From contig OZ234494.1 in the NCBI GenBank assembly GCA_965153455.1, positions 9,920,001 through 9,984,000 of the forward strand: DNA of 64,000 nucleotides, in the 5' to 3' direction. The stretch comes from Sphagnum compactum (taxonomy: Eukaryota). The notes beneath the pieces are model-generated. The model was not told the DNA's origin, made no database searches, and worked only from the letters and a program-made list of their open reading frames with translations. Position 1 is the stretch's first letter. Each line of letters starts with the position of its first letter. The translations under genes and the position numbers were made by a program. This document shows, piece by piece, positions 24,831 to 49,241 of the stretch.

Positions 24831-26638
24831 TTTCCTAAATAACTATCTTGCTCCTTTCCTAACAACCAAACACAGACTCGATTGCCCCGCCGTACTATGC
24901 ACAGGTACTACTTCTCCCTTGCATGACAATAATGTAAGGTCCAAACCGCAAACTTCATAAAAGGCTTCGAACCTTCTATTGCCATATTGCAAATTTTCGG
25001 CCATGCCACCGTTCCCATGATACACAGGAATAAACAATAAACACCAAACCGATCTTCCTCACAAGGGGGGAATGTAATGTAGATGGGGACTTGTTGTTAC
25101 TAGCAAGCCTGGGGTCAATGCTTGTCACTAGGAAATAGAGGTTTTTGAAATGTGTGTAATCGCTTAGATCCAAGTGTCGGACAAGTCAAGTTTTTTGTGC
25201 TCCACGTGTTGTCAGTTAATGTGAAATCTGATTTGGGATGATTACTACTTTGGCCACATCACAAAATTGAAAGAAAAAGACCGACTGCAAAGCCAAACAA
25301 ACCTCCTCAAGTTGGTGTGATTGGTGAGGAGAGGTTGGCATTAAGGCTTGAGCCCTAATTCTTGGCTTGGGCCCAAAATTCTTTGCTTCGGATTCAAGGC
25401 ATATCTGTGGATTCATTAGAGAGTGAAATTCTTAAATTTGACTTCAAGCAACAAGTGTTAGGATAGAATCACTCATCAACAAACACAGGTACTGATTATC
25501 AAACAATTTTTAATATTTTCATCATTCATTAACCAAATTGAGTGATTTTTGTGTCATTGGATGTGCAAACTGGAGGGTTAGAAATGTTCTTTGAGCATCA
25601 GAAGTAAAGGAGCCATGCAGAAAACAAAAAAAGAGGGTGACTGATAATTTGTTTCGAACTTTTTGAAAACATTACCTCTAGACCTCTCTCTAGTTCTAGC
25701 CCCATCTCTTCCTCATTTTTATTAGTCTGTTTTGAGTGATTTAAAATCTGATGAGTGCACCAACTAGGGCTTTACAAAATTTCTTTGTATTCCCAAGTCA
25801 AAGATGTGACAATCAAAGATTCTGTTGTAATTCATCCACCATTGAACACTAAACCCCCTTACACCAAACACCCCATATCTTCTCACCAAATTGAGCAATT
25901 TTGGTGATGTTAAAAGTGATAGATGGAGGGTTACAAATGTTCTTTGAGTTTCAGAAGCAGAGGAACAATGCATGAGGATTCAACCTCCTTTGAGGTCTGA
26001 AGTGTTTGCTCACCAACTTATCTACTTTGAGTTCCAAACTGTTTGTTCACCAACCTATTTACCCTAGTTGTTAGATCGTGCAATGTGAAGACATGATAAA
26101 AAAAAATCCAATCTTACCAAATAACTTATTTAAGCCAATTGAACTTTTCAAGAAAGAGGGACATGGGGCATTGCAATTCCTAATTGTTTTCAACAATTAA
26201 TCAATGGTCACTGGTAGTGCACCAATGCTGAGCTCATGTATACAATATAACTTCTGTGTACATCTGTAATATTAGAAAAAATTTATTAAAAAAAATAGCA
26301 TGTGCCTTATAAAATAAAAGGAATTAGTTATTAGTAGGTTCAATTATTATGAAATAATGTTGATTAACTATCTTTTGATTGTATACGATGCTTACAGGGT
26401 CAATAAATTAATTGAGGCAAAATTGGCTTTAAGACATTTAAGTGAACATGGAGAAAAATGTTTAGAATTTTAAGTCTAACGTTTCTAACAATTAGGGTTT
26501 TAAACTTTAGGGTTATAGGGAGGCTACAATGATGTCTTCTTATATACTGCTTGGTTAGGGCTAAAAATGGGGGAAAGAAAGAAGGAAAGGGGGAAAAAAA
26601 AAGAGAGAGACTGGTGGGGAAGAAGAACCAAAGCTTAC

Positions 26639-26729
26639 GACGCATGAGAGGGAGCTTGCGAACACCATTAGAGAATATCTGAATGCTGAAGCCCAAAGCA
26701 GCCCCAACAAAAGTCGCAGTACCCACCAT
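26639..26729 (-). pseudogene. Exon 1 of mitochondrial complex I accessory subunit B14.5b (NDUFC2-like, cf. Arabidopsis At4g20150); exon 2 not found
   Basis: MVGTATFVGAALGFSIQIFSNGVRKLPLMR followed by phase-1 donor C|GTAAGC. Matches the recalled plant sequence pattern SATMVGALLGLGTQMYSNALRKLPYMRHPWEH. No HPWEH exon seen downstream. Confidence 0.7.
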
Positions 26730-29393
26730 GCTGCTGCCGCTACTACTGCTTCTTGTACTAGTACTCCTTGTTCTAGTTTCCTCTGCAACCGCTGCGTAAC
26801 TTGCGTCTCTGTGGAAGTTCTCAAACTGTGATATCTACCAGTCTTGGCAAGAAAAAGGAAACGTTCTATTCTCATCACCAGATTCGTCCCAAGTGATGAA
26901 CAAGAAGGGCTTGCTTGCCTCCTCCGTGTGAGCAGGGTTGTTTCCTTCTCAATTTTGTGCTGTGGCTCAAGTGGCGATCATCCAGGAGTATGTTTAGCCA
27001 AATTTGGTGATATTAACAATATGAAATTATTATTTTTTAAATCACCCTTTCACATTGTAGGCAATCGTGGTGAAATATGGTGATTTCAGAAATTTTCCCC
27101 CTAACTCCGGTGACTTTGCCATGTTTTTTCCACACAAATCCTTTGTATCATTAGAACTGGAGTTTCTTTATAAGCACCCAGAAAAAAATTTAGGCTGAGA
27201 TTCCTTTTGTGGGTCCTCCTCAAATAATTGACATAACATAATTTCATGTTATGGAAACCAATTTGACGATCCCAAATGGGATGCCATCTCCACGTGAACA
27301 AAACCTCTCTGGGCTTAACTCTCTGAAAGATATATGACATTCATAATGGGTACGAAAGATGGGTGAGTAGTGAGTACCAAAGGAGCATAGTTTTTTAAGT
27401 AATGTCTAATCATTGAGCTCTATTGAAAATTTTAATTTTAGGGTTTTAAACTGCATGTGGAATCTTGTGATGAAGTGAACCACTCTACACAATCCAAGAT
27501 TTATTTGAAGATATTCAAAAAAAATTACAAAGAAATAATCTATAGTGCTTTTGTCGATGTGCTTATGTAATTACAAAGATGCAATGAGGTAGTAGAAGTC
27601 ACAATGCTCTATTTAATTACAAGTAAGTTTTGGAACACTAGTGATGTGAATTCCACAAGTTATCTTTACATATGTCAACTTTGATTTATGTGGAGAAAGT
27701 AAGCGAATTAAATATACCCTACTACCTTGCCAGCTTTGCCACTAATTATATTGATTCCAGAAATGTTGGAATTTTCAAACATACTTTTTTTCAAAGAACA
27801 AAATTTTGTGAAGGAAATATTGAATCTTCAAGAATATTCTATTTGTCAAAATGAAAATTTCAAAATTAATTAATTATTTGACAGATGTGTGTGTGGAAGC
27901 TGCCAAGGTACTACAGTATACAACAAGAAGTTGAACAGTAAACAAATTGATAACAAGAAGGAACAAAACAAAATGAAAGAACATGTAAACATGAATCCAA
28001 TTAATGTGGAAATGTGATGGAAAATGAAAGATATTAAATGATGGTAATTCTTTGCATCCAACAGTTTTCCAATTCATAAGCATTCAATATTAGACTTGAG
28101 TCTTTTAAGTAAAACAAAGTAAATTTATAATCTCACGTGGACAATTGAGAACTTTAGTTTACTAAAACTAATTGATTTGTTTTATTAGAATGTTGTGTAA
28201 TTTGATATGACAATAGTGATGCAAGGTTTGTCGACCAAGTATGATTGCATTTATTTTGCACTTGAAAGCCTTCCATCTTTTCTCAAAGGTGAACATCTTT
28301 TAGCTACGATGATGAAAGAAACATGGTTGCCCAATTATTTTGCAAATGTTTCAAATTATCAATTATGGATGACCACTTTCGGTTATTATGGGGAACATGT
28401 ATCACATCTTAGCCACAAACAATGTGGTTTCAAATGTTCCAAGGTAAATATGAAGTTGCAAAAGGAATGTATTATATCTAATGACCATTTTCCAAAATTG
28501 CCAATTGCAAGTTACAGATCTAAAGAAATGTTTTGATATTATGAATGAGATTGACAAAATATCATTTAAAGATTATCCTTTAATTAATAAACTTTTCACT
28601 ATTATTCCTTCACCAAATGTATCAATATTTTATACCTTTGGGTATTCATTGGATTTCATCCCCATGGATACCCCCATCAACAAGGTTTTTTGTCATCAAT
28701 AATTAGCCACCTTGAAAATCCATCACATTCGGTCTTCCAAACTCTGTTTTTCCAAAAACCGCATACCCAAAAGTGGATTTCCCAAATGCCTGAACACTAG
28801 GGGTCGGTTAACCTTGTGCACATTCATATTTTAAGATGTGTTGGGTGGGTATTTGATCTTTTAATAAGCATCAGTTCCAGTTCTTTTGTATTTCAGACTC
28901 AGAGAACAATCAGTTTGGTATTTGGGGGAAATCAGAATTAAAGAATTGTCAGTTCTAATTATTTCAAAACCCTCAAAGAACCATTCTGTTGCAAGAAAGA
29001 ACTGGTGGACTTGGGGGTGATCATCTGATTTTTTCCAAAAAAAATGAAAACTGTGAATATATATCAGGACTGGGTATTTGATTTTTCTGAGAACTGCGAT
29101 TATGAACCCTAAGAACCGCCCTGATACTCAAAGGGAGTTTGATGCAGTTTCTAAGACCTGCCCAACTTGGGATTTGAAGTTTGAACTTGCCGTAAAGGGC
29201 GAAGCCATTAGCGCATGAGTTGCTTGTTTGTTTAGGTCCAAACAACTACTCAGCCTGGATTTAATGGAGTAAAGGTTTTTAATTCCTTACATTTTTGTGC
29301 TAAATTTGGGAATTGGATTAGATCCCCAAAGTTCCCAATAACAAGACACACATTGCTCACATTGATCCCAAGGCCACATCCCCCAAACAAATG

Positions 29394-29470
29394 GCGACCT
29401 CCATTTAAGGACCACCATTTGGGGACCTCTATTTCACGACCTCCATTTAGGGACTTCCATTTGGGAACTT
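29394..29470 (+). repeat. Short degenerate tandem repeat
   Basis: About five ~14-nt GACCTCCATTT(A/G)GG-like units. Confidence 0.7.
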
Positions 29471-30679
29471 TCGTATTGTCTGTGATATGTCGGCTTCACC
29501 TTCTTGCGTTGTGTGGAAGAACTCTTGATAGATACAAGTCTCTTGTGATTGAGGGAAGCTATTTGATCTTTGGGTACATCAGAATTGTATTGTTGTAGTG
29601 TCGCTATAGATGCTACAGTTGCACTACTAAACAGTTTGTCATCATCACTCATTAGTTGGTTGCTACCAGCAATGGATTCCAACAGAGCTCATGGAATTTA
29701 GTGTCTCCTTGGTTTTGAAGAACGGATTCATAACCACTACAATTGGAGCTTCCACCTGCACTAAATTATGTCATTTTTGTAGGTGTGTTTCTCTTAATGA
29801 ATGATGATGATAATTTTGTTCCAACTGAAATGACTTGTGGCTGTGATGTAGAAGAATGTTTCAGTAACAAAAACAGATTCATCTATGCAATTGGCACCCA
29901 TATCTACCTACCTACCTAGTATATATCACAAGCATCACCTACATAGTAACCATTTACATTCCCTACCTAATTACCTACTATACTTACTACCGTCGTACCT
30001 TGGGGGCTTCAGCATAAATTTAAATGTTTTTTTAATTTGTTGAAATTTTGAAAAAGTTGTTTGAAATGTAAAAGTTTGATCTTTGGTCGTCTTAAGAGAA
30101 GATACTAAATAGGGGTCCACCTGATCATGAAAAAAATTCAATTTTTTTGAAATAAATGTACCTTACAATAACTTTATTTCTTATTTTGAAAAACTAACAA
30201 AATGAAGGTTACATACTAAATGAAACAAATATATTCGATTACAATACAAATTTAATTTTGAAACTTGGTCACCACCAAGTTAGTATTGAAAACCTTCAAA
30301 TTCAAAGAAGTTGCACAATTAATAAAATTCAAATTTCATAATAGGCAAATAAACTTTATTGAACATTTCATATAAAAGTGAACCCGGTGGCCACCAGGTT
30401 GTTAAACACAAAGGAGTTCACCAAGAGTTTTTATACAAAATTTGAAAATAATAAATAAGTTATCACAAATGAAAAATCCACAGTTTGAAAGCATTTTTTA
30501 AACTCCCGAAAGAACATTGGTTTCAACCTTAAAAATAAAATCAATCCTTTTTAGTATTAGAACTTTTGTGATTGTCCATCATCAAATATGCAATTACATA
30601 GGGACAATCTCAAAATAAGAAATTGTAATGGCAAACATCACTTTCTCCCTTTTAAAGCTACAAGTGAAGTTGCATAGTT

Positions 30680-30801
30680 TGTGAAGAACAATTAAGTCTT
30701 TTAGTTTGTATTATTGAAAACATACAACATTCATTATTACTGTGAAGAACAATTAAGTCTTTTAGTTTGTAGTATTGAAAACATACAACATTCATTATTA
30801 C
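30680..30801 (+). repeat. 61-bp tandem duplication
   Basis: 30680-30740 and 30741-30801 are identical except for one base. Confidence 0.95.
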
Positions 30802-31339
30802 AAAATGTGAGTGAAGTTCACTAATTTCTTATTCACCTAGACCAGTAAATTCATTGCATCCCCATTAAGTCTCACTACAACCAATGAATTCATTCAAAAT
30901 CACTGCAATTAGTGAATTCAATAAAAATCCAGTGAAATCACTTGACATATAGGGTTATAAAGTTACAACAACCAAAATGGACATTGAAAACAAATGAAAC
31001 AATTCAAAATGCATACCTAAAAGGGCTACGTATTTCAAGCATCACCATTATCATTGTTCATGTACTGCAAGAACCAAAAATATAACTTCGCAAAATAGAA
31101 CTCAAACACGGTTCAATCAGAATATTTCACCATAATGTCATGATGAACTCAAACTGTCCTTGTCACTGGTAATCCAATCAAAGCTAGCCATAAACGAAAT
31201 GACAAGTCCAATCATACTTTTTTTTTTAACAAAAGTTGTCACCTAAAGGCACTACTACAAAATGTGGGTGCAGTTCACTAGTACTCATTCACTAGACCGG
31301 TGAATTCACTCAAAATCCAATGAAATCACTTGGCGTACA

Positions 31340-31790
31340 AGGACACCTTTTGTTATAGTGAGGAGTCAAGGGAAAAACCACTCCACTTTGGATTTCGAAA
31401 CACCTTATTGGGTTCATCATCAATTAATAACATTTGGTCTTCCTTCCCATAAGGTATACCACAACAAGCGTAATGCACATGTTTCAAATCCTTTAAATAA
31501 TAATAAGACTCGGATGTAATTATGACAAAAGTCTTGGAACATTGTTCACATCCTTAAACAAAAACAAATCGATCCAAACAAATTTATAACATCAACATTC
31601 GAAGAACTTCTAGCACATCCTCAAAATTCATACAAAACCAAATTCCAATGTAGAAGTTTTTAAATGTCATGGAAAGGAAATGTTCCACTCCAATTCTTCC
31701 AAACATTCGAACATTCCCTTGTAGAATAACATAATGTGGGAAATAACACAACACACCATTCATGTTGAAAATTAACATTTTTCTCGGTCT
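31340..31790 (-). pseudogene. NIF/FCP1-like HAD phosphatase-domain remnant
   Basis: KMLIFNMNGVL...RIGVEHFLSMTFKNFYIGIW and, after disruptions, EDQMLLIDDEPNKVFRNPK. These resemble the NIF motifs LVLDLNGxL, RPGxxEFL..F.vgiWS and NTLLIDDSPYKAxxNP. Confidence 0.6.
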
Positions 31791-32289
31791 AGCAACCTAC
31801 AAACATAGACATTGACACATTCAAATGCCTTTGATGATTGGATCTTCCCCCAAGGAAAGATTGAACTACAACAACAACAACACAATGTGTTAGCGAAAAT
31901 GTGACAACTAGATACACTTAAAAATATCAATTGACTAGAAAATGACAAAATGTTCTACAATTGATAAAAAAATTGCCTTATGGACACCAAGCCATTGAAA
32001 TTAGCAAGGATGATAAAATTTAAACAATTGGCCAACATGTGACTAATACAATCAATAATATGAAATGCTTAAACATTGAAAGACAAAAGACATGGTGGCC
32101 ACAAAATATATATATTGAAGGAAGATTGTTTAAAACTTTTTTTGAAATAATATTTATAAACAAGAATGCATGCCCAGTAGATTTTTAGGATTTAGTTGCA
32201 ATTTCAACATAAAATTTGGTAGATATATGTCACAATAATCATTTAAAGAAATTACAATTAAAATGACAACAAATATATTACATTTTATT

Positions 32290-32640
32290 TTTTTCAATTT
32301 TGCCTTTTATATAGTATGTTGCTTCACGCCTATCATTACAACTCTCAAATAACATTTTGTAATCAAAATCAGTACAACTTATACTATTAATGCTCCCAAA
32401 AGGATTACATTTTACATAAGTTTGAACATTAAATCCAGACAAACCAAACAACACCAAGTAAGGAAATACAATTGTGAACAATTCATGAGATATATCATAA
32501 CAAAAATCACCAAATGATTGTAAAAATATGGCACTATAGGAATCATTAAATATGGATTTATATGGCACATGATCTATGAACAAAATGTAGTGCCAAGCAT
32601 ATGGGAAGACAACATAGTAAGAATTAATCCAGCTAATCCT
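32290..32640 (-). pseudogene. Second NIF/FCP1-like fragment (C-terminal part)
   Basis: ILFIDHVPYKSIFNDSYSAIFLQSF resembles TLLIDDSPYKALLNPxYSAIF. Confidence 0.55.
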
Positions 32641-34274
32641 CACCTTGTGGCCGCCATGCATATGTGATGACAACATAGGAGCAATTGATCCAACTAATCC
32701 TCGCCTTGCAACCACAATAATTAAATCTAGGAAGAACTCAATGCATAATTTAAAAGAGCAATTTGACCATGTTCAAGGAAAAAAAAAGATAAAATGAATT
32801 ACAAATAGATTTGTATTAGTTAAATTCACCATTTTTTTGCAATTTAAGAAACCTGAATCGCATTTTTACATACAAGTTGGTACATTAAAGGATCACATTC
32901 CAATTGATTTTTTTCCAATAAATTTATGTACATTAATGGACTACATCTACTCATCTCATTAATATTTACCCAAAGTTAACAATGATGATTTTTCATTATT
33001 TAAACTATAAAGGTTTCAAGGTTTCCACAAGTTCAATATCCCAAATTTTCTCACCAAGTTCTTCCCTGAGGTCGCATTCATTTCTAGTTCTATCTTCCAC
33101 GTTGACTGATGGGGTTATTGATGTGTGCACAACTAACAAATTCAAAGAGGGATGCATGTCATCATTAGCTTGCACATGAACCAAAATGGGTCCATCTCCT
33201 TCTTTTTTTTGAACCATTGGTTATTTTGCATTGAATATTTTTGTTTTTGGAAGCTCATTTTTTATTGTTGGACAGCTTAGTGGATTTTTTTATCTCTATT
33301 CACATAACTTCACTTGCTTTTTGTCAATTGGAGGCAAACATAGAGGAATTTTGTTACCCTTTCTATCGTCTTCTTTTATGTTTTCATCATCTTCTTCCCC
33401 TCCAAATTGATGTCATCACTTGTTTGAATGCCAATTAATGTCATACAGAAAACATTCTGACTCATGTCAGTTACCACATCTTGTGTCACCATTCCAAAAT
33501 ATATACAAAGACATACCGAAAAGATGATATTGCAATTATTCCTTTCAAGATCATGCAAGATGATCTTAAAAACCTTACATTTATTCTCTTATGTTTGTAA
33601 GAAGATCTAATATGAAAAACCATACAACTGAATTAACAAGAATATCAAAACTTTAAAAAACAAATGACTATGTTTTTCATCTTGGACTTACCATGCAAAG
33701 ATAGGTCACAACTCCACTGGCAAAAATGTTCATGCATACCATCTTGCTACTCAATGTTGGCTCCAAACTTCTTGATAATGCCTCTAGGTAGATCTCATTT
33801 CAATATAGTCAGTAGTTTTTAGAAAACATTGAAACTACGTTTTCAATGAATGACGATGGTTTCTTGCTCCCCAAAAAATCAGCCTAGACTAACTTCCCAA
33901 TCCTCCAAATGAATAGGTAGACATAAAAGAGGACATGTTTTGTCATTGTTAAAGAACTCAAAACCTTTACTCTTGCTGCCATGTATTGTCCAATTTTGAA
34001 TCTCAACTTGGTGACATAAATGGATTTCATGATGGTTGACAAGATAAACTTGAATGATTCACGATCACACAAATAGACCACTATCTTGAAAATAACCTTT
34101 AATTTGAGTAGCATATTTAGCAAGGACTCCCGATCTAGGCCTTTCCAAACAATAGACATCTTCTTTGTTGTGTGTGTGATCGAAATGACAATGAAAGTAT
34201 TCATGGCTTCATCTTGCAAAATTGATATCGATTCCCTTTTGTCAATTACATCCAAAAGTTCCACCATGTCATTG

Positions 34275-34822
34275 ACTATTAGCGAGGACGTCAAGTCGAA
34301 GGGTGGGACACGTGTCCGTGTGCACGCGGGTGCGGGATGGCCTCTCAGCCGGCCTCGCGAGCTCCCGCGCATCACATCTCATTAACAGTTGATCTTAGGC
34401 TTTCTAATCTCCAACGAAGTGATTATGCGATGCGATGTGATGCGATCGATCTGCCATGTCGCAGTGCGGATGAGAATCAAGGAACCCAATGATCTGCCTG
34501 CCTGTTGTCTGCCGGCCAAGAATTTTTTTAAAAAAATTTCAGGCCGCCTCCTCCCATCCCTCTTTGACGGACAGATTCCACGCTTTCGCATCCACACGGC
34601 CGCGCTGCCTTCTGAAGTGAAGCAAAGCGGGGAGAAGGGGGTTGGGGGTCCCACCGCCCTGCTGCTGCTGATGTTATTATTCAATTGATATAATCATCAA
34701 GGACCTGGGGTGATATTTGAAGGCGGGTTTTTCTTTTGCACTCTGTATGAACCTTCTTCCTGAGTTGTGAGTGAGCTGCGAAAGGATCCAGATATGAGTA
34801 AAGATTTGAACTCACAACTCTG
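34275..34822. repeat. Outer inverted-repeat arm (pairs with 42982-43583)
   Basis: Reverse complement aligns at high identity. ORFs 34389+/43116- and 34382-/43120+ translate almost identically. Confidence 0.95.
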
Positions 34823-35194
34823 GTCATATCTCCCCACATTTAACTAAACTTCTGCAGGAGGAGACTTAGCCAAATGGGTCACAAAGACTATCATCAGATC
34901 AGACTGAATCCCTGTTGATGCTTCTTTACAAGAAATGACACATCCTGTTAGTCAGTTAGGCTGTGAAGGTTTTTTTTATCATGATGAAGCTTACAACGCT
35001 CTGTTCTTCTCTGTTTTTCTTCTCTTCTGCAATTGTTGTCCATGGTTGTTCTGTTCACTACAGAACCTTCTCCAGCTATGTAGTACAATCAGCTGTTATT
35101 ACTGCCAAAGGGTTCTTAATGGTTAGGTAGACTCAGTGCTCATCTCCCAATGTGATTTAAGAATCTAAACTCAGTACATGAAGCATGGTGAGGA

Positions 35195-35453
35195 GGTCGA
35201 TCGGCACACCCAAAACGCGCATGGTGGCCGGAAGTGCCATAATCCCTACTCCAATGACAGTGGTTGCCAGATTGAACACTGAACTTCCAACATTGGCGAC
35301 TGTAGTATCCGGCAGCTGTTCAAGCCTCTCCTGTTTAACCAGTCTCTCTTCATCATCTGTTAAATGAGGGCTTTGAGGGAGCAGAGGAAGCTCATCAACT
35401 AGCACTTTGTGCATATTTTCAGAAATTTCAATCAAAGAGACACCTACTGCCAT
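35195..35453 (-). pseudogene. Truncated amino acid transporter (AAAP/AVT6-like) N-terminus, probably Helitron-captured
   Basis: DELPLLP...ANVGSSVFNLATTVIGVGIMALPATMRVLG matches the AVT6-type motif AVFNLSTTIVGAGIMALPATMKVLG. Similarity stops after TM1, and no further exons were seen. Confidence 0.75.
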
Positions 35454-36796
35454 GAGAGTTTTTTATCAGATTACTGCATCTGTCAGAAAGCAGGCTATGC
35501 AATTATCCTCATCCAGAACCAGCAGATTCACTCACAAAGAAATGGAACCATATGAAGAGGTCCTAGAGTCTGGCATTTTATTTGGGCATTGAGTCTAAAA
35601 TAATGGTGCCTGGAACTGATTTGGGAGGGATGGCAGGTGCAGGAACTTGGTGGCATTGGAGCACCAACATTTCAAGTTCTTGATCTTGAAGGCAAATCTG
35701 TTGCCATTTTATGGGGCCAAGATCGGCTGAACATTGTTGCTGATCTTCTTTGTGGCTGGCGCCCTAGGCTCGGTTGCAGATCACTGGGTCCACATGCTTC
35801 CACAACTTCTAAACTCTTCTCCAAGTCAAAACTTTGATATTATTTAAATAATCATGGTAAGTTGTCATTTGCATTGCAGCAACACAAGGTCCTGTTGGAT
35901 CCAAGTAACAGTCAAGTTGGTGTCTTTGGTGAGATTGGACTCCTCGAGAGGGAAGGGGTGACGATGTTACACTTAAGGTGTAAAGAACCCTCCCCCCTCC
36001 TAATTTACTGCTCCTGATTTATCATACTCTTTAACAAATTCAGCATTAATTAAATTATTTTCAAATTAATTAAAATTTGAAAAAAGTAATTACCAAGAAT
36101 GCCAAAATCAACAAAAAAAAGTTTCTGGGGGTCAGATTTGGGATTTGAGAACTCAGGTCTATGGGGGCCAAACACCCATCACACACAGTTTAGACAAACT
36201 AGGATTGCTATATAGTCGTTACAGTTTGGTGTCTCTTGCTAATGATATTATCTATACTAAAATTTTCAAAAATCCAGAGCCAACGTTTAAGATTCTAATT
36301 ATTTGGTAAACATTTGCTGAATCCGTTCAGGGACTATGATATATATGTTCAAGTTCCCGATAATGCTTTTCTCATGCTTTAACTATGGGTAGAGCACATG
36401 AGTTGAGAACATTTGCAAAATGTGAGCCCAAACTTGGCTATTGTGTCGTTCTAGGTCCCTTACTTTTGGAAATGCCTTCACCCACTATATAGTCCAACAC
36501 CTATCCAGTCCAATACTACACAATAAGTTAATCACATTCAAATGAGAGAAGATGGATTTTGATAAGTCCATACAATACTGCTTTGAAATAGTCTCTCTCT
36601 CTCTCACACACTTTCTATTCTTCTCTATTGTGATCTTTGCAGGAATCAACAACACCTTGAGCAAATAAGTAAGTACAAACTAATAAGCCATGGACTTTCA
36701 TTTCCTCCGCCACCCCGGGGATTGATTTTGGCTCACATTTTGACACCAGTAGCGCTGCCTGCATAATTCTTCAGTTGATGTAGCTAGACTTCAACA

Positions 36797-37856
36797 ATGT
36801 CCACACACACGGCACCAACACAGAAGAGTGCAGGAGAAACCCCCCCCGCCCCCAAGATGCTCGAAGACATACAAGAACGTATGCGTGCACTCATTGCGCA
36901 ACATGGTAGTGTTTTGGCTGCTTTGACGGCCCTTCGACAGCACCTAGAAGCTCAACAGAATGACGAGCAAACTGACTCTTTGGAAAATCATGTTCCACAT
37001 ATTGATGTTCCAGCAGAATTCAATCAAGGCACGTCATAATCTGCACGTGAACGTCACAATCGCCTGCAGAGAGAACGTCATGCTAAGCAACGTGAACAAC
37101 CTTCTCTTCGCAATGACGCATTACAATTGTTTGGAGACGAAGATGCATCAGCCCCGGGACGATGGGATTGTGGAGAAATGGACACAATATGTGGATTCTG
37201 CAGCGCAAAAATGTGGATCAAAGAACGATCGGCAAAGTCGAGGAAGAACAACCCACAATTTTCTCTATGTTGCGAGAATGGCAAAGTTCTGTTGCCGAAT
37301 CTTCCTGCAACACCGCAAGAGCTGGAAGTTCTTTTAACCAGCAAAGAGAGCAGTGCCGTCAAATTTCGAGATCAGATTCGCATGTACAATTCGGTGTTGA
37401 CATTCACTTCGCTCGGTGCCAAAGTTGATGAGTCGGTAACAGGAGGCCCTGGACCATACTCCTTTCGCATTCAAGGTGAACTTTATCACAAAATCGGATC
37501 CCTATGTCCTGCCGAAGGACAACAGCCACAATTTGCACAACTGTACATTCATGATACGAAACGCGAACGTCAAAACCGCCATGCCGTTATGCCCTCGCTT
37601 GATCCAACGACTTTGGATCGGTTGTTGACCATGATGTACAATATCAATCCCTATGTCAAAGTGTAATGGCAAGGGATATGATGGCAACAGAAGGTGCTCC
37701 CATGGATCTGAAATTGCGTCTCATTGCGTCTCGAACAAAGGATGCCCGCCGATACAATGTGCCAACGGCCGATGAAGTCGCTGCATTGATGGTAGGAGAT
37801 AGTTCTAAGGTTGTAGACAGACGTGACGTCGTCTTTCTCAGCAAGCTGGCCCGTTT
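36797..37856 (+). pseudogene. Helitron Rep/Helicase N-terminal segment (Zn-finger-like CGFC...CC region), sense copy
   Basis: ORF 36797-37039 continues in frame past a TAA into ...LFGDEDASAPGRWDCGEMDTICGFC...FRDQIRMYNS..FTSLG..GPYSFRIQGELYHKIGSL..FAQLYIHD. A 4-bp deletion lies at ~37664, and the copy ends at 37856. Confidence 0.9.
37040..37856. repeat. Inner inverted-repeat arm (pairs with 41372-42193)
   Basis: 817 vs 822 bp reverse-complement match with about 15 substitutions and two small indels (counted by eye). Confidence 0.97.
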
Positions 37857-37904
37857 GCGATCACAATCAACAAGAGTCAAGGTCAGACATTCAACATACA
37901 GCTG

Positions 37905-40900
37905 ACCCGTGAAATAGCAACATACAGCTGACCATGGGAATAGACCGGAGACGGCAAATATACCCCAACGTTGTTGAATGTCTAACCTTGACTCTTGTTG
38001 ATTGTGATCGCAAACGCCACTCGAACTGGAAATTGACGATGACGCAAAACAAATGGCCAATCAGTCCCAGAGGGGGACATGATGATGCGGGGCATGAACA
38101 CACATTTGCCGACATTGTTTCCTGTAATGATCTCCGCTTCAATGACACGCTGACCCAATCTTTTGACAATCAACCTTGTACCATTGCAGAATCCTATTGT
38201 TTGATTGAGATTGTGCAACAAAAGGATTGGCACACCCACTTTGAGTTGCAGCTCATGATTTGCGATATTGCTGAATCGCAAAGTGTTTAGAAATTCCACC
38301 GGATACAATGAATCCATTGAAACTCCTGCAGTAACACTTGCACCTTCTTTTATTGGAGCCAAAGAATTTGCGCTCAGGTACGTGTGCGATTCTTCAGATA
38401 GCGATTCTAAAATTGCATTGTTGACTTCATCAACGTTAGTATTTTTGGGGGCTAGAATATTGCGTTGCATAAGATACATGGCATCCCTAGAGTGGCATCG
38501 GTGATCCGGATAGATGGTTCCGATTAATCCTCTTCAGCTGCAATCTTCTGCTGGCAGCCTCATATGGGATGGAATCTTGATCCAATTTGGATCGACACCT
38601 TCTTCTTCTGCAATGGCAGGAAGATTACCGTCTCCAACATTCAACACCCATTTGGCAAACTCTCGCTGCTCTTCAGAATTGGTTGCCATGACTCGCATGT
38701 TGATATGAAGACGAAGAATTGTAACATGTTGCCAAAGATGCGATCGAGGCAAGGAAGCACTGACAATGTCTTCTCGTCCCGCCTTGGGAACGACAGGCAA
38801 GATCTGCCGAAAAACGCCACCAAGGACCACAGTTTTCCCACCAAAGATTTTCCCGGTTGCTTGTGCGTCATCCAATTGCATCAAATCACGCAGGGTGCAA
38901 TCAACAGCTTCGAAAGCTCGGCGATGCATCATCGGTGCCTCATCCCAAATGATCAGATCAGCTTTACGCACCAACTCGGCCACTTTCATCTGTTGTATGA
39001 TGTTGCAAGTTGACTCATCGTGCAGATCAATCGGAATCTTGAATCTTGAATGGGCGATTCTGCCGCCCGGAAGCAACAAAGACGTAATTCCTGATGAGGC
39101 AACTGCAAGCACGATTTTGCCTTGCCCTCGTAGATGGGACAGAAGTGTTGTCCAAACAAATGTTTTGCTGGTTCCACCACTGCCATACACAAAGAACAGT
39201 TTGCCCTCTTTGTTTGTCACGGCATTCAAAATAGTTTCGTATGCGTTGCGCTGATCATCATTGAGCCTATCTTCTGCATTGTCTGCATCTGTGGTCAATG
39301 AATGCCGATCATAAGCCAACTCTTCTTCGACCAATCGGTTTCCTCCATGAACAAAAGGGATGTAATTAGACTTGGGAAGCGTTGGAAAATCTTCTAGGCG
39401 GTGTCCATTGCGCATGAGAACCTGATCGATCTCATATAATGCACGATCCTTTAGCGCATCCTCAAGAAGGGTAACAGTTGGATCAGCACGCTCGCAGCAT
39501 GTCATTGCTTCAATGTCATCGCTCAAAAACTCCCAATGTGCATCCCATAGCTGTTTGGGATTCGTGACCTCACAAAACATCAACATGGAGGCAAACATGT
39601 CACGCAGCTGTCGTCCTGAGGCCCAAACACCAGCTTCTTCCAAGGCTTGATCCCATTCATTGTCGTCTGCAAGCAAACCCATCGCAATGCATGCATCTTT
39701 GAATGTGTCGTGCACTCTTCCATCCACTGTCCGCAAATGTTCGTAGGATGTGGCACCTTTGACGCAGTTTAGCAGCATTCGCAAATAGTAACGTTCACCC
39801 GATGTCGGGTGTGCATAATACATGCGACCAATGGCAAAGCCTTTCTTGCGCAGTGTCCATCGCTTCAACTTCCGATTCCACACCCATTGCTGAGGGAATT
39901 AATCGAATGTAAGGCTTCGTGCAACTTTCGATTCTTGGTTTGTTTTGAACCATTCTGTGAGCATCGTTCTAGAAATGGCTGATCGTGTTGCCACTTCTTG
40001 CACATCATCGTCATCGTCAAACAGCACCATTTGCTGATTGGGCAAATGGTATTGCAGACGCTCAACGGTAGGAAACTGCTCATGCATATCAAACTTGAAG
40101 ATGCGCCACGTTGCTTCTGATGCAGATACATAGCGACAGTCGAGATATTTTTTAATTTCATCAGTTTCCACCACATTCCCTTCGGTGGCGTTGTCACTCT
40201 GGCGTGAGATCTCAACAGTTGCACGATCATGTCCTTTATATACGTACTTGAATAGATATTTGACTGCACGAATATTGTTGCAGACCTCAACGTTGATGTG
40301 CGCATCGTATTTGGTCGATAAATAGACATTGTGCGGTACCATCCAACGATTGTCCAATTCAATGCCATGAACCACAACTGTGTGCCCTGTATCTCTACGC
40401 CGATAAATAGGGTATCCGATTACATCCGTCACCGTCTCGGATTTGAACTTGCGTGGATATTATTTTTTGCATTTGCCTTCTTCTATGCACGGGGCATTTC
40501 GAAATGCAGCTCCACATGGACCATGCATCATGCATCTGGCAACCGTCTCATGCGCCAACTTGTTTATTTTTGAATTCGGAAGTTCAGCACTGATCATGCG
40601 GTCTACATCCTCCATCGTGTGTGGCTTGTAGTCTTCGGTAAAGAAGATGAGAATGTGTGCATGCGACAGCCCACGGTTTTGAAATTCAACAACATAGATT
40701 CCCGCAATCGTGCGTCCCAGAATATGGTTCTTGTGAATGTCATTGATCAACTCCTTCAGCTTGATTTTGAACACTCGGGTTACCAAATTGGGTCGATCCT
40801 GAGGTTGCTGTCCAAGTAACAACGTTCTCTTGATTTCAAGCCATTGGGGATTGCAAGTGAATGTAACAAACACATCCGGGCAGCCGGCCCATCTGCAGAT

Positions 40901-42193
40901 TGCCATGGCATCTTGATAATTCTGAACCATGTGACGTGGACCTACTGTGAAAGAAGATGGCAGAATGATCCTCTGTCCAATGGCAGCAGCACTACTGTCA
41001 CTTGCAGCGATGGCGTCTTGAAGGCTTTGATAAACATCCACGCAAAGTTTTTTTTGATTCAGGCGCAGATACTTCAAGCGTTTTTTTCGATAGCCGCATA
41101 AGCATCCACAATGCATCCGCATTCGGTCACCCCGAAGCAACGCAATGCCATCAGTGTCTCGATGTTGAAGTCGATAACCATAAAATTCCGCCATTGTCAC
41201 ATTGCAATGTTTTCTTTGAAGCTCAGATTCTCCCGCATGGTCTTCATCCAAATCTACATCAGTAACAACACCATTGAGCGGAATATTCGGATGCCATCCA
41301 TCCTCACCGTAAGGAAACAACAACGAATAATGTAGAGCCATGTATCCCACATGTAGTTCGGAAATGCGCTGAAACGGGCCAACTTGTTGAGCAAGGACGA
41401 CGTCACATCTATCTACAACCTTAGAACCATCTCCTACCATCAATGTAGCGACTTCATCGGCCATCGGCACATTGTATCGACGGGCATCCTTTGTTCGAGA
41501 CGCAATGAGACGCAATTTCAGCTCCATGGGAGCACCTTCTGTTGCCATCATATCCCTTGCCATTTTGAACACTTCGACATAGGGATTGATATTGTACATC
41601 ATGGTCAACAACCGATCCAAAGTCGTTGGATCAAGCGAGGGCATAACGGCATGGCGGTTTTGACGTTCGCGTTTCGTATCATGAATGTACAGTTGTGCAA
41701 ATTGTGGCTGTTGTCCTTCGGCAAGACATAGGGATCCGATTTTGTGATAAAGTTCACCTTGAATGCGAAAGGAGTATGGTCCAGGGCCTCCTGTTACCGA
41801 CTCATCAACTTTGGCACCGAGCGAAGTGAATGTCAACACCGAATTGTACATGCGAATCTAATCTCGAAATTTGACAGCACTGCTCTCTTTGCTGGTTAAA
41901 AGAACTTCCAGCTCTTGCGGTGTTGCAGGAAGATTCGGCAACAGAACTTTGCCATTCTCGCAACATAGAGAAAATTGTGGGTTGTTCTTCCTCGACTTTG
42001 CCGATCGTTCTTTGATCCACATTTTTGCGCTGCAGAATCCACATATTGTGTCCATTTCTCCACAATCCCATCGTCCCGGGGCTGATGCATCTTCGTCTCC
42101 AAACAATTGTAATGCGTCATTGCGAAGAGAAGGTTGTTCACGTTGCTTAGCATGACGTTCTCTCTGCAGGCAATTGTGACGTTCACGTGCAGA
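37905..42193 (-). pseudogene. Helitron Rep (HUH Y2)-PIF1 helicase, near full length but inactivated and truncated after helicase motif VI
   Basis: HUH motifs VFVTFTCNP, VEFQNRGLSHAH and KYLFKYVYKG. Helicase motifs YGSGGTSKT, IIWDEAPM, LGGVFRQILPV, TINKSQG* and HGQLYVAISRV. Stops at 41858, 40460, 39899, 38534 and 37982, plus a garbled segment near 41100. Confidence 0.95.
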
Positions 42194-42981
42194 GTCAAGT
42201 CGAAGGGTGGGACACGTGGCCGCGTGTCCGTAGCTACTGTCCGTCCGGAGTCAGGGGAAGGAACTTTCTTCCTTTACAATATATAATAATGTGTATCCAA
42301 AAAAATGGCCTCTTTAACAATTGCTTTTAGAGTTGCGCTCAGAATCCACTTTTTTAGAATAATTATAAATCATGTAGGTGGAGCTTTGTTTGAGGGGTTC
42401 AACTTCATATTTTTGTTGTAGAACTTTTCATTGAACTCTAAATCCAAATTGAGAAGAACATATGATTGAACTTGTGTTTGACCTTCTTTTCATGCTAGTA
42501 TTCATCAAAGTATGGTTTCTAGTTGTTGGCTGTTGGTTTCGGAGATTCAAAATGAATCATAATTTCATTTTGAATCATGGCCATCCTTTTCAAGAGTTTT
42601 GTGAACTCATACAAGACTTGAGGTCGGGTCTCCTTCCCCCTTGGCAAAATGATCATGTATTGTCATTATTTTAATAATGAGTCTTCTTGCTAGCTTCTTG
42701 AACCACTTCTCCTTCAGGTTGGTGAGGCAACGAAATGCTGATTTTTTTATCAACTTGGGAGGATGAGCTAGTGTCCCTCCCCAGGCAATTTGCCCATACT
42801 GAATTAAAAACTACAAACTTCATTTCCATTTAACACACAAAAAATATTTGTCATATATTATTACATATCCTCATATTAACAAATAAATAGAGTTCTAGGG
42901 TTCTAGCACATTACTTGTTTGTTTAATATTTGTTTAGTATTTTCCATTATTTTTTCATACATACACAATACAATACATACA

Positions 42982-43650
42982 CAGAGTTGTGAGTTCAAAT
43001 CTATACTCATATCTGGATCCTTTCGCAGCTCACTCACAACTCAGGAAGAAGGTTCATACAGAGTGCAAAAGAAAAACCTGCCTTCAAATATCACCCCAGG
43101 TCCTTGATGATTATATCAATTGAATAGTAACATCAGCAGCAGCAGCAGGGCGGCGGGACCCCCAACCCCCTTCTCCCCGCTTTGCTTCACTTCAGAATGC
43201 AGCGCAGCCGTGTGGATGCGAGAGCGTGGAATCCGTCCGTCAAGGAGGGATGGGAGGAGGCGGCCTGAAATTTTTTTAAAAAAATTCTTGGCTGGCAGAC
43301 AACAGGCAGGCAGATCATTGGGCTCCTTGATTCTCATCCGCACTGCAACATGGCAGATCGATCGCATCACATCGCATAATCACTTCGTTGGAGATTAGAA
43401 AGCCTAAGATCAACTGCTAATGAGATGTGATGCGCGGGAGCTCGCGAGGGCAGTTGAGAGGCCATCCCACACCTGCGTGCACGCAGACACATGTCCCGCC
43501 CTTCGACTTGACTCCGGACGGACAGTAGCTACGGACACGTGGCCACGTGTCCCACCCTTCGACTTGACGTCCTCGCTAATAGTAGCTATGTCCGTAGCTA
43601 CTGTCCGTCCGGAGTCGGGGGAAGGAACTTTCTTCCTTTACAATATATAA
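42982..43650. mobile_element. Non-autonomous Helitron derivative: inverted copy of the 34275-34822 end fused to a second copy of the 42286 terminus
   Basis: 42982-43583 is the reverse complement of 34275-34822 plus a ~55-bp internal insertion. 43590-43650 is nearly identical to 42226-42286. A perfect 20-bp palindrome GGACACGTGGCCACGTGTCC lies at 43533-43552. Confidence 0.8.
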
Positions 43651-45087
43651 TATGCAGTTGAGGCTTACCTAGAGGCTAAACTTTGTGGCTAAACTCTCAC
43701 CTAAATTGGGATTGAACTAAAAACCCTAAAAGATTAAGTGCCCCCCCCCCCCCTCCAAAAAAAGAAGAAGAAGAAGGAGAGACAGTTAGAAAGTGACGAC
43801 CTAATTCAAAAGAGAGGAGTTATTACGTAGCCCTAAAATGGCACATAAGTCACACTTTTAGTTGCCAAACTAGGCTACTACTCTTGTTGCTGGCTGTCTG
43901 TCTGTCAACTTTGTCTTTTTATTTGCCTTCACCGATGCGGTGCCAGGTGCATCTCAAATGAATTTCGTAACGTCCTGCTGGGATTGAAGCGACTAGTTCT
44001 TGGATCGCACTGATTTGTGCACTCTGAGCTGAATTCGTAATTTATTTATTTTTTGGTTTTTATGATCTGTGTCGCATGATCGTAATTCATCGTCTCGTGG
44101 AAATTACCCCACCCCTATCGACAAAGAAAGTGAAGAAAAAGGCAGTCGGTGTGAAGTTGATCGCATTATTGTGGAGGCGATGGTGATGGGAACTTCTCGA
44201 ATTTTCGTTCGTCCTCGTGCATAATTTGGGCGGTTTCTAGGTTATTTTTGTTTGGAGAAAGTACCAGTGTTGTAACTGTCGGAGGAGGAGGAGGAGGATG
44301 ATATGATTCTTGGTCTGCTTGTTTGTTGTCCGTTTTGCAGAACTCACGTTTTGTAAAGGTTTCTCTGCTGGATTCGCAACCAGAGAATGAGCAGAAACTG
44401 TGACTCGTGAGCAAACACGTTGCGAGCACAAAACAAAACATATTTGCAAGTGAAAGTGCCAGTTCGACCGACGCAGTAGTATATTCTGTGATCATCGGTG
44501 ACGACGGATTTTCTCTTTTTTTTGTTCGGGACGACGTTGCAGGAGACGGTGTGTGAGGCGGCCGCGGATTCGGATCGATTTGACAGTACACTTGCTGCAT
44601 GCAAGTTTTTTCGACGGTGCTCAAAATGCTCGAGATGCAGCAGCGAAGACAATTGTCGAACTCAGTTTTGTAATTTTCGGTCGAACATCGTGCTTCAAGG
44701 GATTACGAGATCTACAGCCGTGGCCCGTAACGTCGCGAGGCCGCATACCTACGTTGTCTGCATCTCCTGTTGTCTGCATGTCGTGGATCTGTAAACGTTT
44801 CTTGAGAATTCGACCCCGGAAGAGTTGCTTGTTTCGAGAACTCCACAACACCGGCGATAGGTGAAATATGAAATGTGTAGATTGAACTTGTTATCGAAAC
44901 TTACGCACCGGATCCCCTTCAAGTTACGACGGCGCGGAGGACATATAGATCTGCATCTCTTGGTCAATTTTGGCACAATCTTCCTTCTGAACAAAGTATA
45001 TGCATCGGCCCCTGTTACAATTGAAGTGGTGATCGGTTGCGTGCATTGCAGCACAGTAATACCATGTTTGACAGAAGCATTGCGTTA

Positions 45088-48000
45088 ATGTCCAACATCA
45101 TGGCACCAAACCAGAACGGAGAGACAACAAACAGCAACAATATCCTGCAGTGCAAAAGATCAGTTCCAGGCAGGAAGAATCTCAGTGCAGCAGCATCAGG
45201 CAATGGATGCATCGACTTATGTAAACAAGAATTGGAATCCATTTGTGTGGAGCAACAGCAGTCGATCAAGAGATCAACCTCCTGTGTCGATGCAGATCTG
45301 AAGCTACACTCCTCCAGCGAATCGGCCTTACTGCACTCGCGCCCGTGGCGTATTACTCTACAGGTGATGCACCTGCAGAGGACTTCGCAAAATGCTGTGC
45401 TGCTTCAGCGGTTTCTGTTATAGCATGTTGTGTGTTCTGTCGTCTCTCATATCTCGCGGAGACGTCCTTGCAGCAGCAGGATATACAGATCTAGTACTAG
45501 ACTTTCTGTGTCACACAAGTGTTTTTTTGCTTCTGAGAGTGTTCATGGCCTGACTTTGTCCAGTTTATTGATCTGGAGTACAAAGTTCCGCTGAAGGATC
45601 AGCAGTCAGAGTCATGGTGGAATTTCACAAACCCGCTGGTGCATCGCAAATCCTGCATGACTCGGGGAAAGGACAGGTACAAGACTATCCTCAACGGGGT
45701 ATCAGGAGTCGTCAGTCCTGGTGAAATGCTAGCGATGCTGGGGCCTTCAGGCAGTGGCAAAACAACATTGCTGAACATTCTCAAGGGCGGGAAGCAGCTC
45801 AAAGCGAAGAAGCAGCTCCAAGGCAAGATCCTGTACAACAATAAACCCCACAGCAAGGCTATAAAAAGAATCACGGCATTCGTAGCACAGGACGATGTCT
45901 TGTTCCCTCACTTGACAGTCAAGGAGACGCTGTTTTATGCAGCTCTGCTTAGACTACCACGAAGCTATTCACAAGAACAGAAGGTACTGGGACTCATGAG
46001 CTGCCTGTACGTTGTAGTAACAAAACCCAGTATTGTTAGCACGTCACAATTCCTGTAGTAAAGAATTGTGTTCTTTACAATGCAGATCAGGAACACTGGA
46101 TTTACACAGCTCATTGATGATTGGGTTCAAATTCTTTAACGAATACAGAAAATGTGTCACAACATTACCCTTTTCTACATTTCTTTATTAGTCCTTTTTC
46201 ACCATACACATGAACACAAAGTGAACATTGATCTTCACTAGTCCTATTTCACTGTACACATGGACACAAAGTGGATGATATTGATGGTATTGTGCAGGAA
46301 AGGCGTGTAGAAGCCATCATTGCAGAGCTTGGACTCGAGAAATGCCAGCATACAATGATTGGGAATACCTTCTTGCGTGGAGTATCTGGTGGAGAACGGA
46401 AAAGAGTGAGCATTGGCCATGAAATGCTAGTGGACCCCAGTCTTCTTTTACTTGATGAGCCCACTTCAGGTCTTGATTCAACAACAGCATCAAGGATCAT
46501 TGTTACCTTGCAGGAGTTGGCGAGAGGGGGTAGAACCATAATCACAACAATTCATCAGCCCTCCAGTAGAATTTTCCAGATGTTTGACAAGCTCATTCTT
46601 CTTTCTGGAGGTCAGCTCTTATACTATGGTCGAGCAAATGCAGCCATGGTTTACTTCACCTCACTTGGGTTTGCTCCTTCCTTTGCAACAAATCCGGCTG
46701 ACTTTCTGTTGGATCTTGCAAATGGTTAGTTTCCTTTGCTACCCATGTCCCTTGATTGCTTATGGGAATACATTATATAGATACATAATGCGCACTGGGT
46801 GAAGATGGCCAGTACTTGGATCAGAGTTTGCATGTGGGGATCATGTTCAGTTTGCTTCAGGAATTCCTCTTGAGTTTGGTTTCTTTCCAGATCATTGTCT
46901 GCCATCCTAATATTGAACTTGTTTTGTGATCAAACTTAGGGGTGGCACCTGACTTGACGCCAGTGACTGAAGAGAGTTCAGCTCAAGAAGTTGAAGGAGA
47001 AGAGGGGAGGACAAAGCAAACTCAAACCCAACAGCCCTTGCGGGAGACACTTATTGAGGCTTATAAGGCGATTCTGGCCCAGAAGACCAGTTCAGAGCAA
47101 GCTGTTTTAACAGAAGGGGAAACACAAGGTTTGTAACTTTTTCCCAGCTTAATTTCGTGAGGGTAGTTGCACATGTATGCTATGTTCCAACTTCCCAGTA
47201 TTGTGTTCTGCTTCTGACAATGTTATATATAGTCCATGCCGCTTGACATTGAAGCTTTGGGTCTAGATCAGCAGTTTCTTGAAACTTATTGTAAAGATCA
47301 ACCTCACCCTACTGATAGTACTTTTCCCTCCTTTGTTTACAACAGCATTATTGGATAAGAGGAAGTGGCCAACTACATGGCAAGAGCAATTTCGGGTACT
47401 GGCGGTGCGAGGGCTCAAGGAGCGCAGGCATGAAGCCTTTGCAGGTCTAAGGGTAGGTCAGGTGCTTGCCATCTCCATCATCTGTGGTCTGCTGTGGTGG
47501 CAAACTTCTACAGATCGAATCCAGGACCAGGTGGGTCTACTTTTCTGTGATATCATCAAAAATTTGTTCAGCGAATTGTTCATTTGAGCCAAGTCAGGAG
47601 ATAGGGTGGACAGTGGTCAGTACTAAAGAAAAATCAGTCCCTTCATGTTTTTTCTTAACTTTTCTGACACTCCTGTTGAACTCAGAATATGGGGTCTTAA
47701 CTAGTCTTTGAAGAATTATGACATATACCCATCACCCAGACACTTTGATGAACTTATATGCATACCTATCATACTTCAAGTTAGGCATCACCATATGATA
47801 TCATTCTACCATCTCACTTCGTATTTGGGGAAAGTATTTCATGCACGCTGTGAGTGACCTGACTCCTGGCTGTTGTATAATGAATGCACAGGTGGGCTTG
47901 CTATTCTTTATTTCAACATTTTGGGGATTTTTCCCTCTCTTTTCAGCCATCTTCACATTTCCTCAGGAACGAGCCATGTTGTTGAAGGAAAGGGGTTCAG

Positions 48001-49241
48001 GCATGTATCGCCTCAGTGCCTACTTCTTTGCCCGCATGGTGGGAGATTTGCCTTTGGAGCTTGCATTGCCAACAACATTTGTCACTATTGTGTACTGGAT
48101 GGGAGGTCTAAAGCCCACTCCAGTTGGCTTCTTCCTCACACTTGCAGTGGTTCTCTACAATGTGCTTGTATCTCAGGTGATGCTAGCCAACTATAAAAAA
48201 TTTCCTTTGTTCACAACTTTTAGTATTGTGAAAGCTCTTTTTCTGATCTAATGACATTCCATTTGCAACAGCAGGTTGATTGGATCTTGAAACACTATGA
48301 ATTTGTAAGATCCAATCTTAAAAAGATCTTAATGAACAGTTTGGAAAGGAGAATTCGAATCAGACTTTCAGATTTGATAAGCAATCAGAAGTCAGTCCTG
48401 TTACCTTTTGTTAGCTTCCTGTTCCAGCTCAGAGGTTCTACTGATTGAAATCTAGAGGCTTAATGATGATAGGGTTCAGGTGGCTAACAGACTGCCTGCT
48501 GTATGGATTCAAACAAGTTAACAATTGTCACAGTACCACCAATTAGCCTCCATTCATAAGTCCAGTTTTAGCTGTCAAGTTAGTTGTCCAGGACAACTTT
48601 GTTATGGGGTGATGCTCAGAGGAATGGTACTGAACAACTGGATCCTGGATGTCTGGTGCCACCAGGTTGTCCTCCTGACCATACAATGAGAGCCTTTTTA
48701 TGGAGTGTGAGACTGTCAGAGTATAACTTATTTCTCTATCTTGTTCAACAATAGAAATATCTTCAGATGAAATGAATTCAGGGATTCTCTGCATGTAGAG
48801 TGCATGTGTCTCTGAGAGGTGACAATACCATTCACCCATTTCTAAACCCCTAAAGTGTCCTTGTTTTTCCAGGGACTTGGCCTAGCATTGGGGGCAGCTT
48901 TGATGGACGTCAAGCAGGCAACCACAATGGCATCAGTCATCATGCTCACATTCTTGCTTGCCAGTGGCTACTATGTTCAGGTGACACCTGCATGGATTGG
49001 CTGGTTGAAGTATGTATCTTTCAGCTACTATTGCTTTAAGCTCCAACTTGCATCCCAGTACAGCCAGAACCAAACATACCCATGTCCTACAGGCCGATGC
49101 CTGGTTAAGGATTATCCAGCAATACATGTTGTGGGTCTGGATCACATAGGTCTTGCAGCCATGGCTATGGCCATCATGCTCATTGCATACAGATTCCTTA
49201 CATACATAGCACTCATGCGTATAAAAGGATATGAGAATTGA
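45088..49241 (+). CDS. ABCG (White-Brown) half-size ABC transporter, ABCG9/14/21/25-like; 7 exons (~45088-45363, 45564-45983, 46298-46724, 46940-47128, 47346-47530, 47892-48176, 48873-49241)
   Basis: Walker [10 protein letters not shown], signature VSGGERKR, Walker [26 protein letters not shown], and C-terminal ABC2 TM domain. All junctions are GT-AG and in frame. The start codon is uncertain (in-frame ATGs at 45064, 45088, 45100). Confidence 0.93.

Follow-up and report, generated by a model that had tools for sequence, protein, structure and literature searches.

The locus considered here has the shape of a transposon killer and, in our opinion, is probably the fossil of one aberrant Helitron transposition, in which the copy of a single donor was folded back on itself. 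It was found in the moss Sphagnum compactum in a window of 64,000 nucleotides (C2:9920001-9984000), that is, the whole stretch of DNA that was analysed, and was compared with a genome of 382 Mb in 702 contigs. Like known killer loci, the insertion carries a segment of an autonomous element that is duplicated in inverted orientation and includes transposase sequence; a silencing function of such a fossil is hypothetical. It is still being asked how plants recognise a transposon family for the first time; the natural triggers known so far, Mu killer as well as the Ac killers, belong to cut-and-paste elements. Thanks to the empty site, unique junctions and arm-specific variants described below, the idea of a killer can be tested directly in a rolling-circle element. 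Should the locus make no RNA, it is an ordinary but well-resolved fossil of a rearranged transposon.

The boundaries of the insertion follow from a paralogous host block on C8 (C8:12351485-12359816), which matches 26541-34277 and 42287-42781 of the window at 94-98%. In this paralogous empty site (L059), window position 34277 is joined to 42287 via 14 other bases, and 34278-42286 is therefore one insertion unit. In the window, the host block is bracketed by pieces of one C4 locus (26244-26352, 26446-26542 and 42768-42985). A precise insertion between A and T leaving the target unchanged was not seen, as the empty site has these 14 extra bases; it also carries C, not the canonical T, after the insertion-side A, and the paralog may have diverged here. 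Similarity to the family begins at 34275. The minus strand carries a family 5' terminus at about 42286 and a second one at about 43650. The former matches 21 family 5' termini among the fetched loci and begins with T after a host A, as is usual for Helitrons. Most of the sampled family 5' ends (L013-L064) start with TT and some with the canonical TC, and several of them directly follow CTAG of another copy. Neither the family 3' hairpin, sought at up to 3 mismatches, nor the CTRR terminus characteristic of Helitrons was found in the window; the hairpin together with CTAG is present in the sister copies L015, L017 and L022. A 3' hairpin was likewise sought in the window for a giant Helitron starting from the neighbouring fragment B1 and carrying the C8 block, and none was found.

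The earlier note had placed the 5' end of the Helitron at 36251. This position is internal: it is the start of none of the 34 genome matches to 36130-36430, and 17 other copies continue across it, so it was ruled out as a terminus. Inverted ends of 550 bp (34275-34822 and 42982-43583) were also considered as terminal inverted repeats of a MULE-like element, and this assignment was rejected, since a target duplication was not seen, 42287 is where the empty site closes, and a sister relationship of B1 and the 5' region of half A is unsupported.

Table 1. Parts of the fold-back Helitron insertion and the adjacent fragment of the same family (window positions)
Feature	Positions	Strand	Remarks
Whole fold-back Helitron insertion	34278-42286		about 8.0 kb; both ends 5'-derived, 3' terminus lacking
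Half A, 5' region	34275-34822	+	first ~65 nt of the family lacking; 3-nt microhomology to host (34275-34277)
Captured host-like fragments	34823-35939	+	common to other family copies
Rep upstream region and first Rep codons	35940-37039	+	candidate ATG near 36858, then premature stop at 37037-37039
Arm A	37040-37856	+	Rep N-terminal fragment; frameshifting deletions after 37664 and at 37836
Sense piece of helicase C-terminus	37852-37896	+	45 bp, entered via 5-nt microhomology
Turn-round point	37897-37907	-	short templated antisense filler, duplicated at 37923-37933
Half B	37903-42193	-	RepHel, starting at about codon 61 and ending close to the C-terminus; 1430 codons, one frame
Arm B	41372-42193	-	12 own substitutions, 11 of 12 C>T or G>A
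5' terminus end	42194-42286	-	~65 nt terminus and 30-nt inverted 5'-region piece, joined straight to Rep
B1, neighbouring 5' fragment of the same family	42982-43650	-	670 bp, outside the insertion

On the plus strand, the insertion starts with a sense 5' half, running from about nucleotide 66 of the element to 37856. It is followed by the 45 bp of sense helicase C-terminus, the turn and 4.3 kb of antisense RepHel up to 42193, and is completed by 30 nt of sense 5' region and the antisense of the terminal 65 nt. Every internal joint shows 2-6 nt of microhomology or templated filler. The 45-bp piece is an inverted copy of 37972-38016 and forms a second short hairpin at the fold, and the folding predicted for 37780-38030 has an energy of -113.4 kcal/mol (z -12). 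Among the 40 scored of 223 candidates, 37790-37990 is spanned by the window alone, in agreement with the unique junction announced by the earlier note. Upstream of Rep, there are a TATA-like word at about 36484-36492 and intron-like signals, both candidates for promoter and leader elements only. The captured segment contains a minus-strand reading frame (35414-35157), which we take to resemble the N-terminus of an amino-acid transporter; no Pfam family was assigned to the captured frame at 35199-35414 or to 26660-26833.

The palindromic join within the 5' terminus end occurs exactly twice genome-wide, here and at 43533 in B1, so both share a local template. B1 is 95.8% identical to the 5' region of half A. 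In its part 43480-43652, two template switches have placed an inverted copy of B1's own terminus, 28 bp long, and the 5' end at 42194-42286 looks like a loop-inverted form of this part.

The inverted repeat of about 820 bp and about 98% identity, noticed earlier, proved to be real. In self-comparison of the window, arms A and B are 97.4% identical over 822 columns, with 16 substitutions per 817 aligned bases and gaps of 4 bp and 1 bp in arm A; the longest perfect runs of the stem are 295, 148 and 135 nt. The core of some 3.5 kb of antisense Rep/helicase sequence was also borne out: the arms are separated by 3515 bp of antisense RepHel, in which Pfam recognised Helitron_like_N (E 3.8e-50), PIF1 (E 1.3e-84) and Pif1_2B (E 8.2e-21). 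This RepHel, having the HUH Rep and PIF1 helicase domains of Helitrons, is broken by 5 in-frame stops in half B, which is without a 3' end and has its own upstream region deleted. In half A, the premature stop lies directly before the arm, where 4 sister copies have a sense codon. RepHel cannot be made by either half.

Judging by sequence comparison, both arms come from one donor. They group together as sisters when 23 copies are placed on a tree (support 0.983) and share transversions at 37612 and 37728, one of them in the inner, less similar part, which are found in none of the 85 other copies fetched from 88 exact marker sites. The closest other copy, L013, differs by 3.4% from arm A and by 4.4% from arm B. 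Differences between the arms are distributed unevenly, with 4 in the outer 618 bp and 12 in the inner 199 bp, where the arms are 6.0% apart, a value near the median of 7.0% for unrelated family pairs. Since the split from L013, the ratio of shared to private changes is 8:4 in the outer and 1:12 in the inner arm (Fisher p 0.0036, the boundary being chosen after seeing the data). We infer that the arms split about as long ago as they did from L013 and that the outer 618 bp subsequently underwent arm-to-arm conversion. Over most of its length, half B differs from the family majority by 3.1-3.4%, and its load of CG/CHG deamination is like that of other copies. No excess of CHH deamination was found on arm B compared with the spacer (1/224 versus 19/986 sites); the mutation spectrum gave no signal as a trace of hairpin-directed methylation and was abandoned as such.

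In the event that we consider probable, RepHel would have joined the 5' end of the element to the host at 42286. The copying of one donor would then have turned near the helicase C-terminus, by a template switch or snap-back, and returned on the other strand, after which the free end would have been repaired into the host via microhomology at the cost of 14 host bases. Owing to microhomology deletions in both halves, at 37852-37856 and 42193/42194, each part of the element would have been left about once, except for the 820-bp overlap that forms the inverted repeat. Homogenisation of the outer 618 bp by gene conversion between the arms may have taken place later, and the locus would since have been methylated and have decayed as all other copies. 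Most likely, it does little or nothing today, having hairpin potential and no intact target. The idea of one event is based on the single empty site for both halves, the sister relationship of the arms with their two private shared transversions, the microhomology or filler at the joints and the existence of a pair of the same topology on C12. Besides the 6.0% difference of the inner arms, two points speak against it: the palindromic join common to B1 (43533) needs a second local template, and the insertion-side A is followed in the empty site by C and not by T.

As the inner arms are 6.0% apart, two sister copies of one donor lineage may also have been stacked tail to tail, with the palindrome trimmed by microhomology end joining and the arms partly converted; we regard such a history as possible and not very likely. 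Helitrons abutting tail to tail do exist in the genome, for example at L040:6700-6900, where a non-coding Helitron meets, with its 3' end, the inverted 3' region of a RepHel copy. Nevertheless, such a stack requires that both 3' ends and the terminal 65 nt of half A be lost, of 87 sequences only the two arms have the inner allele at 37728, and there is a single pair of host junctions.

Besides its probable origin as a one-event fold-back, the locus poses the question of function. According to the killer reading, plus-strand RNA started in the Rep upstream region would cross the fold and provide an 820-bp stem and antisense RepHel, whose siRNAs silence, or once silenced, the family in trans. 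This is unlikely in our opinion, although the layout does match Mu killer as well as the Ac killers. The likeness claimed earlier even turned out to be closer to Mu killer than was thought. Mu killer of maize has both ends from the mudrA side and an inverted duplication of about 1.3 kb of the transposase N-terminus (PMC3440606). Similarly, the moss locus is an internally deleted and partly duplicated autonomous element with both ends from the transposase-side terminus, an inverted N-terminal duplication of 0.82 kb and, still present on arm A, the upstream region proximal to Rep. Mu killer derives from a cut-and-paste element, is transcribed from a flanking gene and is reported to silence MuDR dominantly (PMC3440606), whereas the moss locus belongs to a rolling-circle element, has a 3.5-kb antisense spacer, is old and mutated, and is known from its DNA. 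The Ac killers p1-ww-id1 and p1-ww-id4 are described as inverted 5' halves formed by aberrant transposition with re-replication, id4 being seemingly driven by the element's own promoter, as was proposed for the moss locus (bioRxiv 10.1101/2020.01.07.897926). They differ in their laboratory origin beside an active Ac and in the dsRNA and siRNAs of 21, 22 and 24 nt that were measured (bioRxiv 10.1101/2020.01.07.897926), while the moss family has no intact member in 63 near-complete copies.

Several properties of the family are consistent with a killer. A median of 26% of the arm-A 21-mers match another copy exactly, and 59% do so at no more than one mismatch, and the perfect runs of the stem are long. 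All sampled near-complete copies are now dead: none of the 63 with at least 90% of RepHel, from 80 loci carrying the exact 20-mer, is free of stops, which number at least 2 and are scattered in position. In Physcomitrella, Helitrons were reported to be enriched among 23-nt siRNA loci, one without an obvious trigger (PMC2600652). The same source gives none of 52 Physcomitrella 21-nt loci, mostly rich in inverted repeats, as overlapping Helitrons (PMC2600652), which argues in the opposite direction. De novo and heterochromatic methylation in this moss is described as largely independent of RdDM (PMC6453930), so that no special trigger is needed.

Data on the activity of the family also weigh against a killer. 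Partners at another locus closer than 3.4%, the distance from arm A to its nearest copy, were found for 31 of 85 copies (10 of 85 have partners closer than 2.0%), so the family probably kept moving, transposition having probably continued in a subfamily that shares about 94-95% identity with the arm. With the inner arm taken as dating the locus, this points to transposition after the locus had formed; if the whole-arm difference of 2.0% dates it, the last activity would be roughly contemporary with it and would fit a killer. The Rep N-terminus of L038, L041, L042, L044, L046 and L052 contains 2-3 tandem units of 129 bp, while the window copy has 1, and the subfamily with 2-3 units is the younger one. 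Among the records listed from one unstranded RNA contig set of unknown genotype, with 3251 further pieces, none spans the junction, which is a weak argument. A present or family-wide silencing role is thus indirectly disfavoured by the lack of an intact target in 63 copies, the younger-looking copies and the missing CHH excess. Contigs of run X15 resembling RepHel, found without cover of single-copy flank, were rejected as evidence of family transcription, because DNA carry-over fits them equally well; runs X15-X20 contained only 0.08-0.16 of the words.

The family resembles canonical Helitrons, including Helraiser, in its RepHel, 5' terminus, capture of gene fragments and head-to-tail neighbours (PMC4778049, PMC5876387) and, through the sister copies, in the 3' hairpin with CTAG. 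The locus itself deviates from them by two 5'-derived ends, the absence of a 3' end and the 14-bp target deletion. Intermediates and arrays of Helraiser are head-to-tail circles and tandems, and no fold-back product is mentioned in the available portions of these papers (PMC4778049, PMC5876387). For wheat Xuan-Feng, head-to-tail circles or tandems and not inverted products were reported in the portion available (PMC13286980). In Arabidopsis, inverted repeats overlapping Helitrons are common, making up 18% of the gene-proximal set (bioRxiv 10.1101/2022.07.05.498814), so Helitron hairpins in themselves are already known. That study, in its accessible part, deals with effects on neighbouring genes and has no inverted RepHel duplication acting on its own family (bioRxiv 10.1101/2022.07.05.498814). 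Neither a Helitron killer nor a RepHel fold-back was found in the open-licence PMC and bioRxiv literature, supplements aside.

Further converging, nearly identical Helitron pairs were met in the hit lists, and the genome therefore contains at least 3 more. The pair on C12 (C12:12646.6-12661.8 kb; L038:2624-7503 and L039:2945-7826) has arms of 4882 bp at 99.3% identity and is a better hairpin candidate than the locus of the window. Its left half is a nearly full RepHel with 3 stops, and its right half is a 3'-truncated inverted copy; one end has a canonical 5' junction, and the other 5' end has inverted filler. A 1.6-kb insert was copied between the halves and matches C6 at 93%, with unrelated flanks. 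The pair on C6 (L078:7554-9345 and L079:680-2503) is 98.2% identical over 1824 bp, with 1 substitution in 1792, and that on C15 (L057:707-2233 and L057:8929-L081:455) has 1072 bp at 98.4% and 455 bp at 96.7%; both consist of non-coding Helitron 5' halves lying within Helitron piles. A bias of neighbouring Helitrons to inversion was suggested by 3 of 3 pairs within 20 kb being opposed among 88 Rep-marker sites and was rejected as a general rule. The C10 pair among these is only 87-91% alike and hence independent, and with the 5' marker (53 sites) four close pairs outside the fold-back locus are direct, direct neighbours being common. It is conceivable, if unlikely, that rolling-circle transposition of Helitrons recurrently yields fold-backs with one 5' junction made by the enzyme and one 5'-side junction made by repair (at least this one and C12, perhaps also C6 and C15), which are kept alike by conversion and would be the missing siRNA triggers in mosses, self-made killers shutting the family down. 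The recurring layout, if true, would add a product to the head-to-tail intermediates known from Helraiser.

The assembly was checked against contigs of four short-read runs over 33000-41360, with arm B, 42287 and B1 lying outside this range. In run X8, a DNA contig with a depth of 16.3 and 33 letters on its short side has 34290 joined to 37040 on opposite strands, which corresponds to the join of the window at 42193/42194. A contig of run X1 covers 37771-37876 with 0 differences, bears arm-A-specific alleles at a depth of 49.9 versus 48 in the flank, and crosses 37856 by 20 letters, below the 31-letter bridging rule. Both X1 and X8 differ from the window in the flank. Runs X1 and X4 also include contigs ending at 34277 and continuing differently, an insertion-free form coming either from the locus or from the C8 paralog; in the same runs, a single continuous contig covers 33000-34093 and mixes alleles of the two genome copies. 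Long inverted repeats are hard to assemble when their family has at least 88 copies, and the central turn (37896-37907) is absent among the contig pieces listed (there being 3251 further pieces), but a false inversion of one Helitron copy is highly improbable, because two private junctions occur in contigs of two other runs and the 16 differences between the arms follow a deamination pattern.

Two observations concern the surroundings of the insertion. The segment 21514-21644 matches the Rep upstream region (36344-36475) in inverted orientation at 71% and is an old repeat fragment. An ABC transporter gene (Pfam ABC_tran, 45537-49240) begins about 2 kb to the right of B1, and minus-strand read-through toward the fold-back could originate in the region upstream of this gene.
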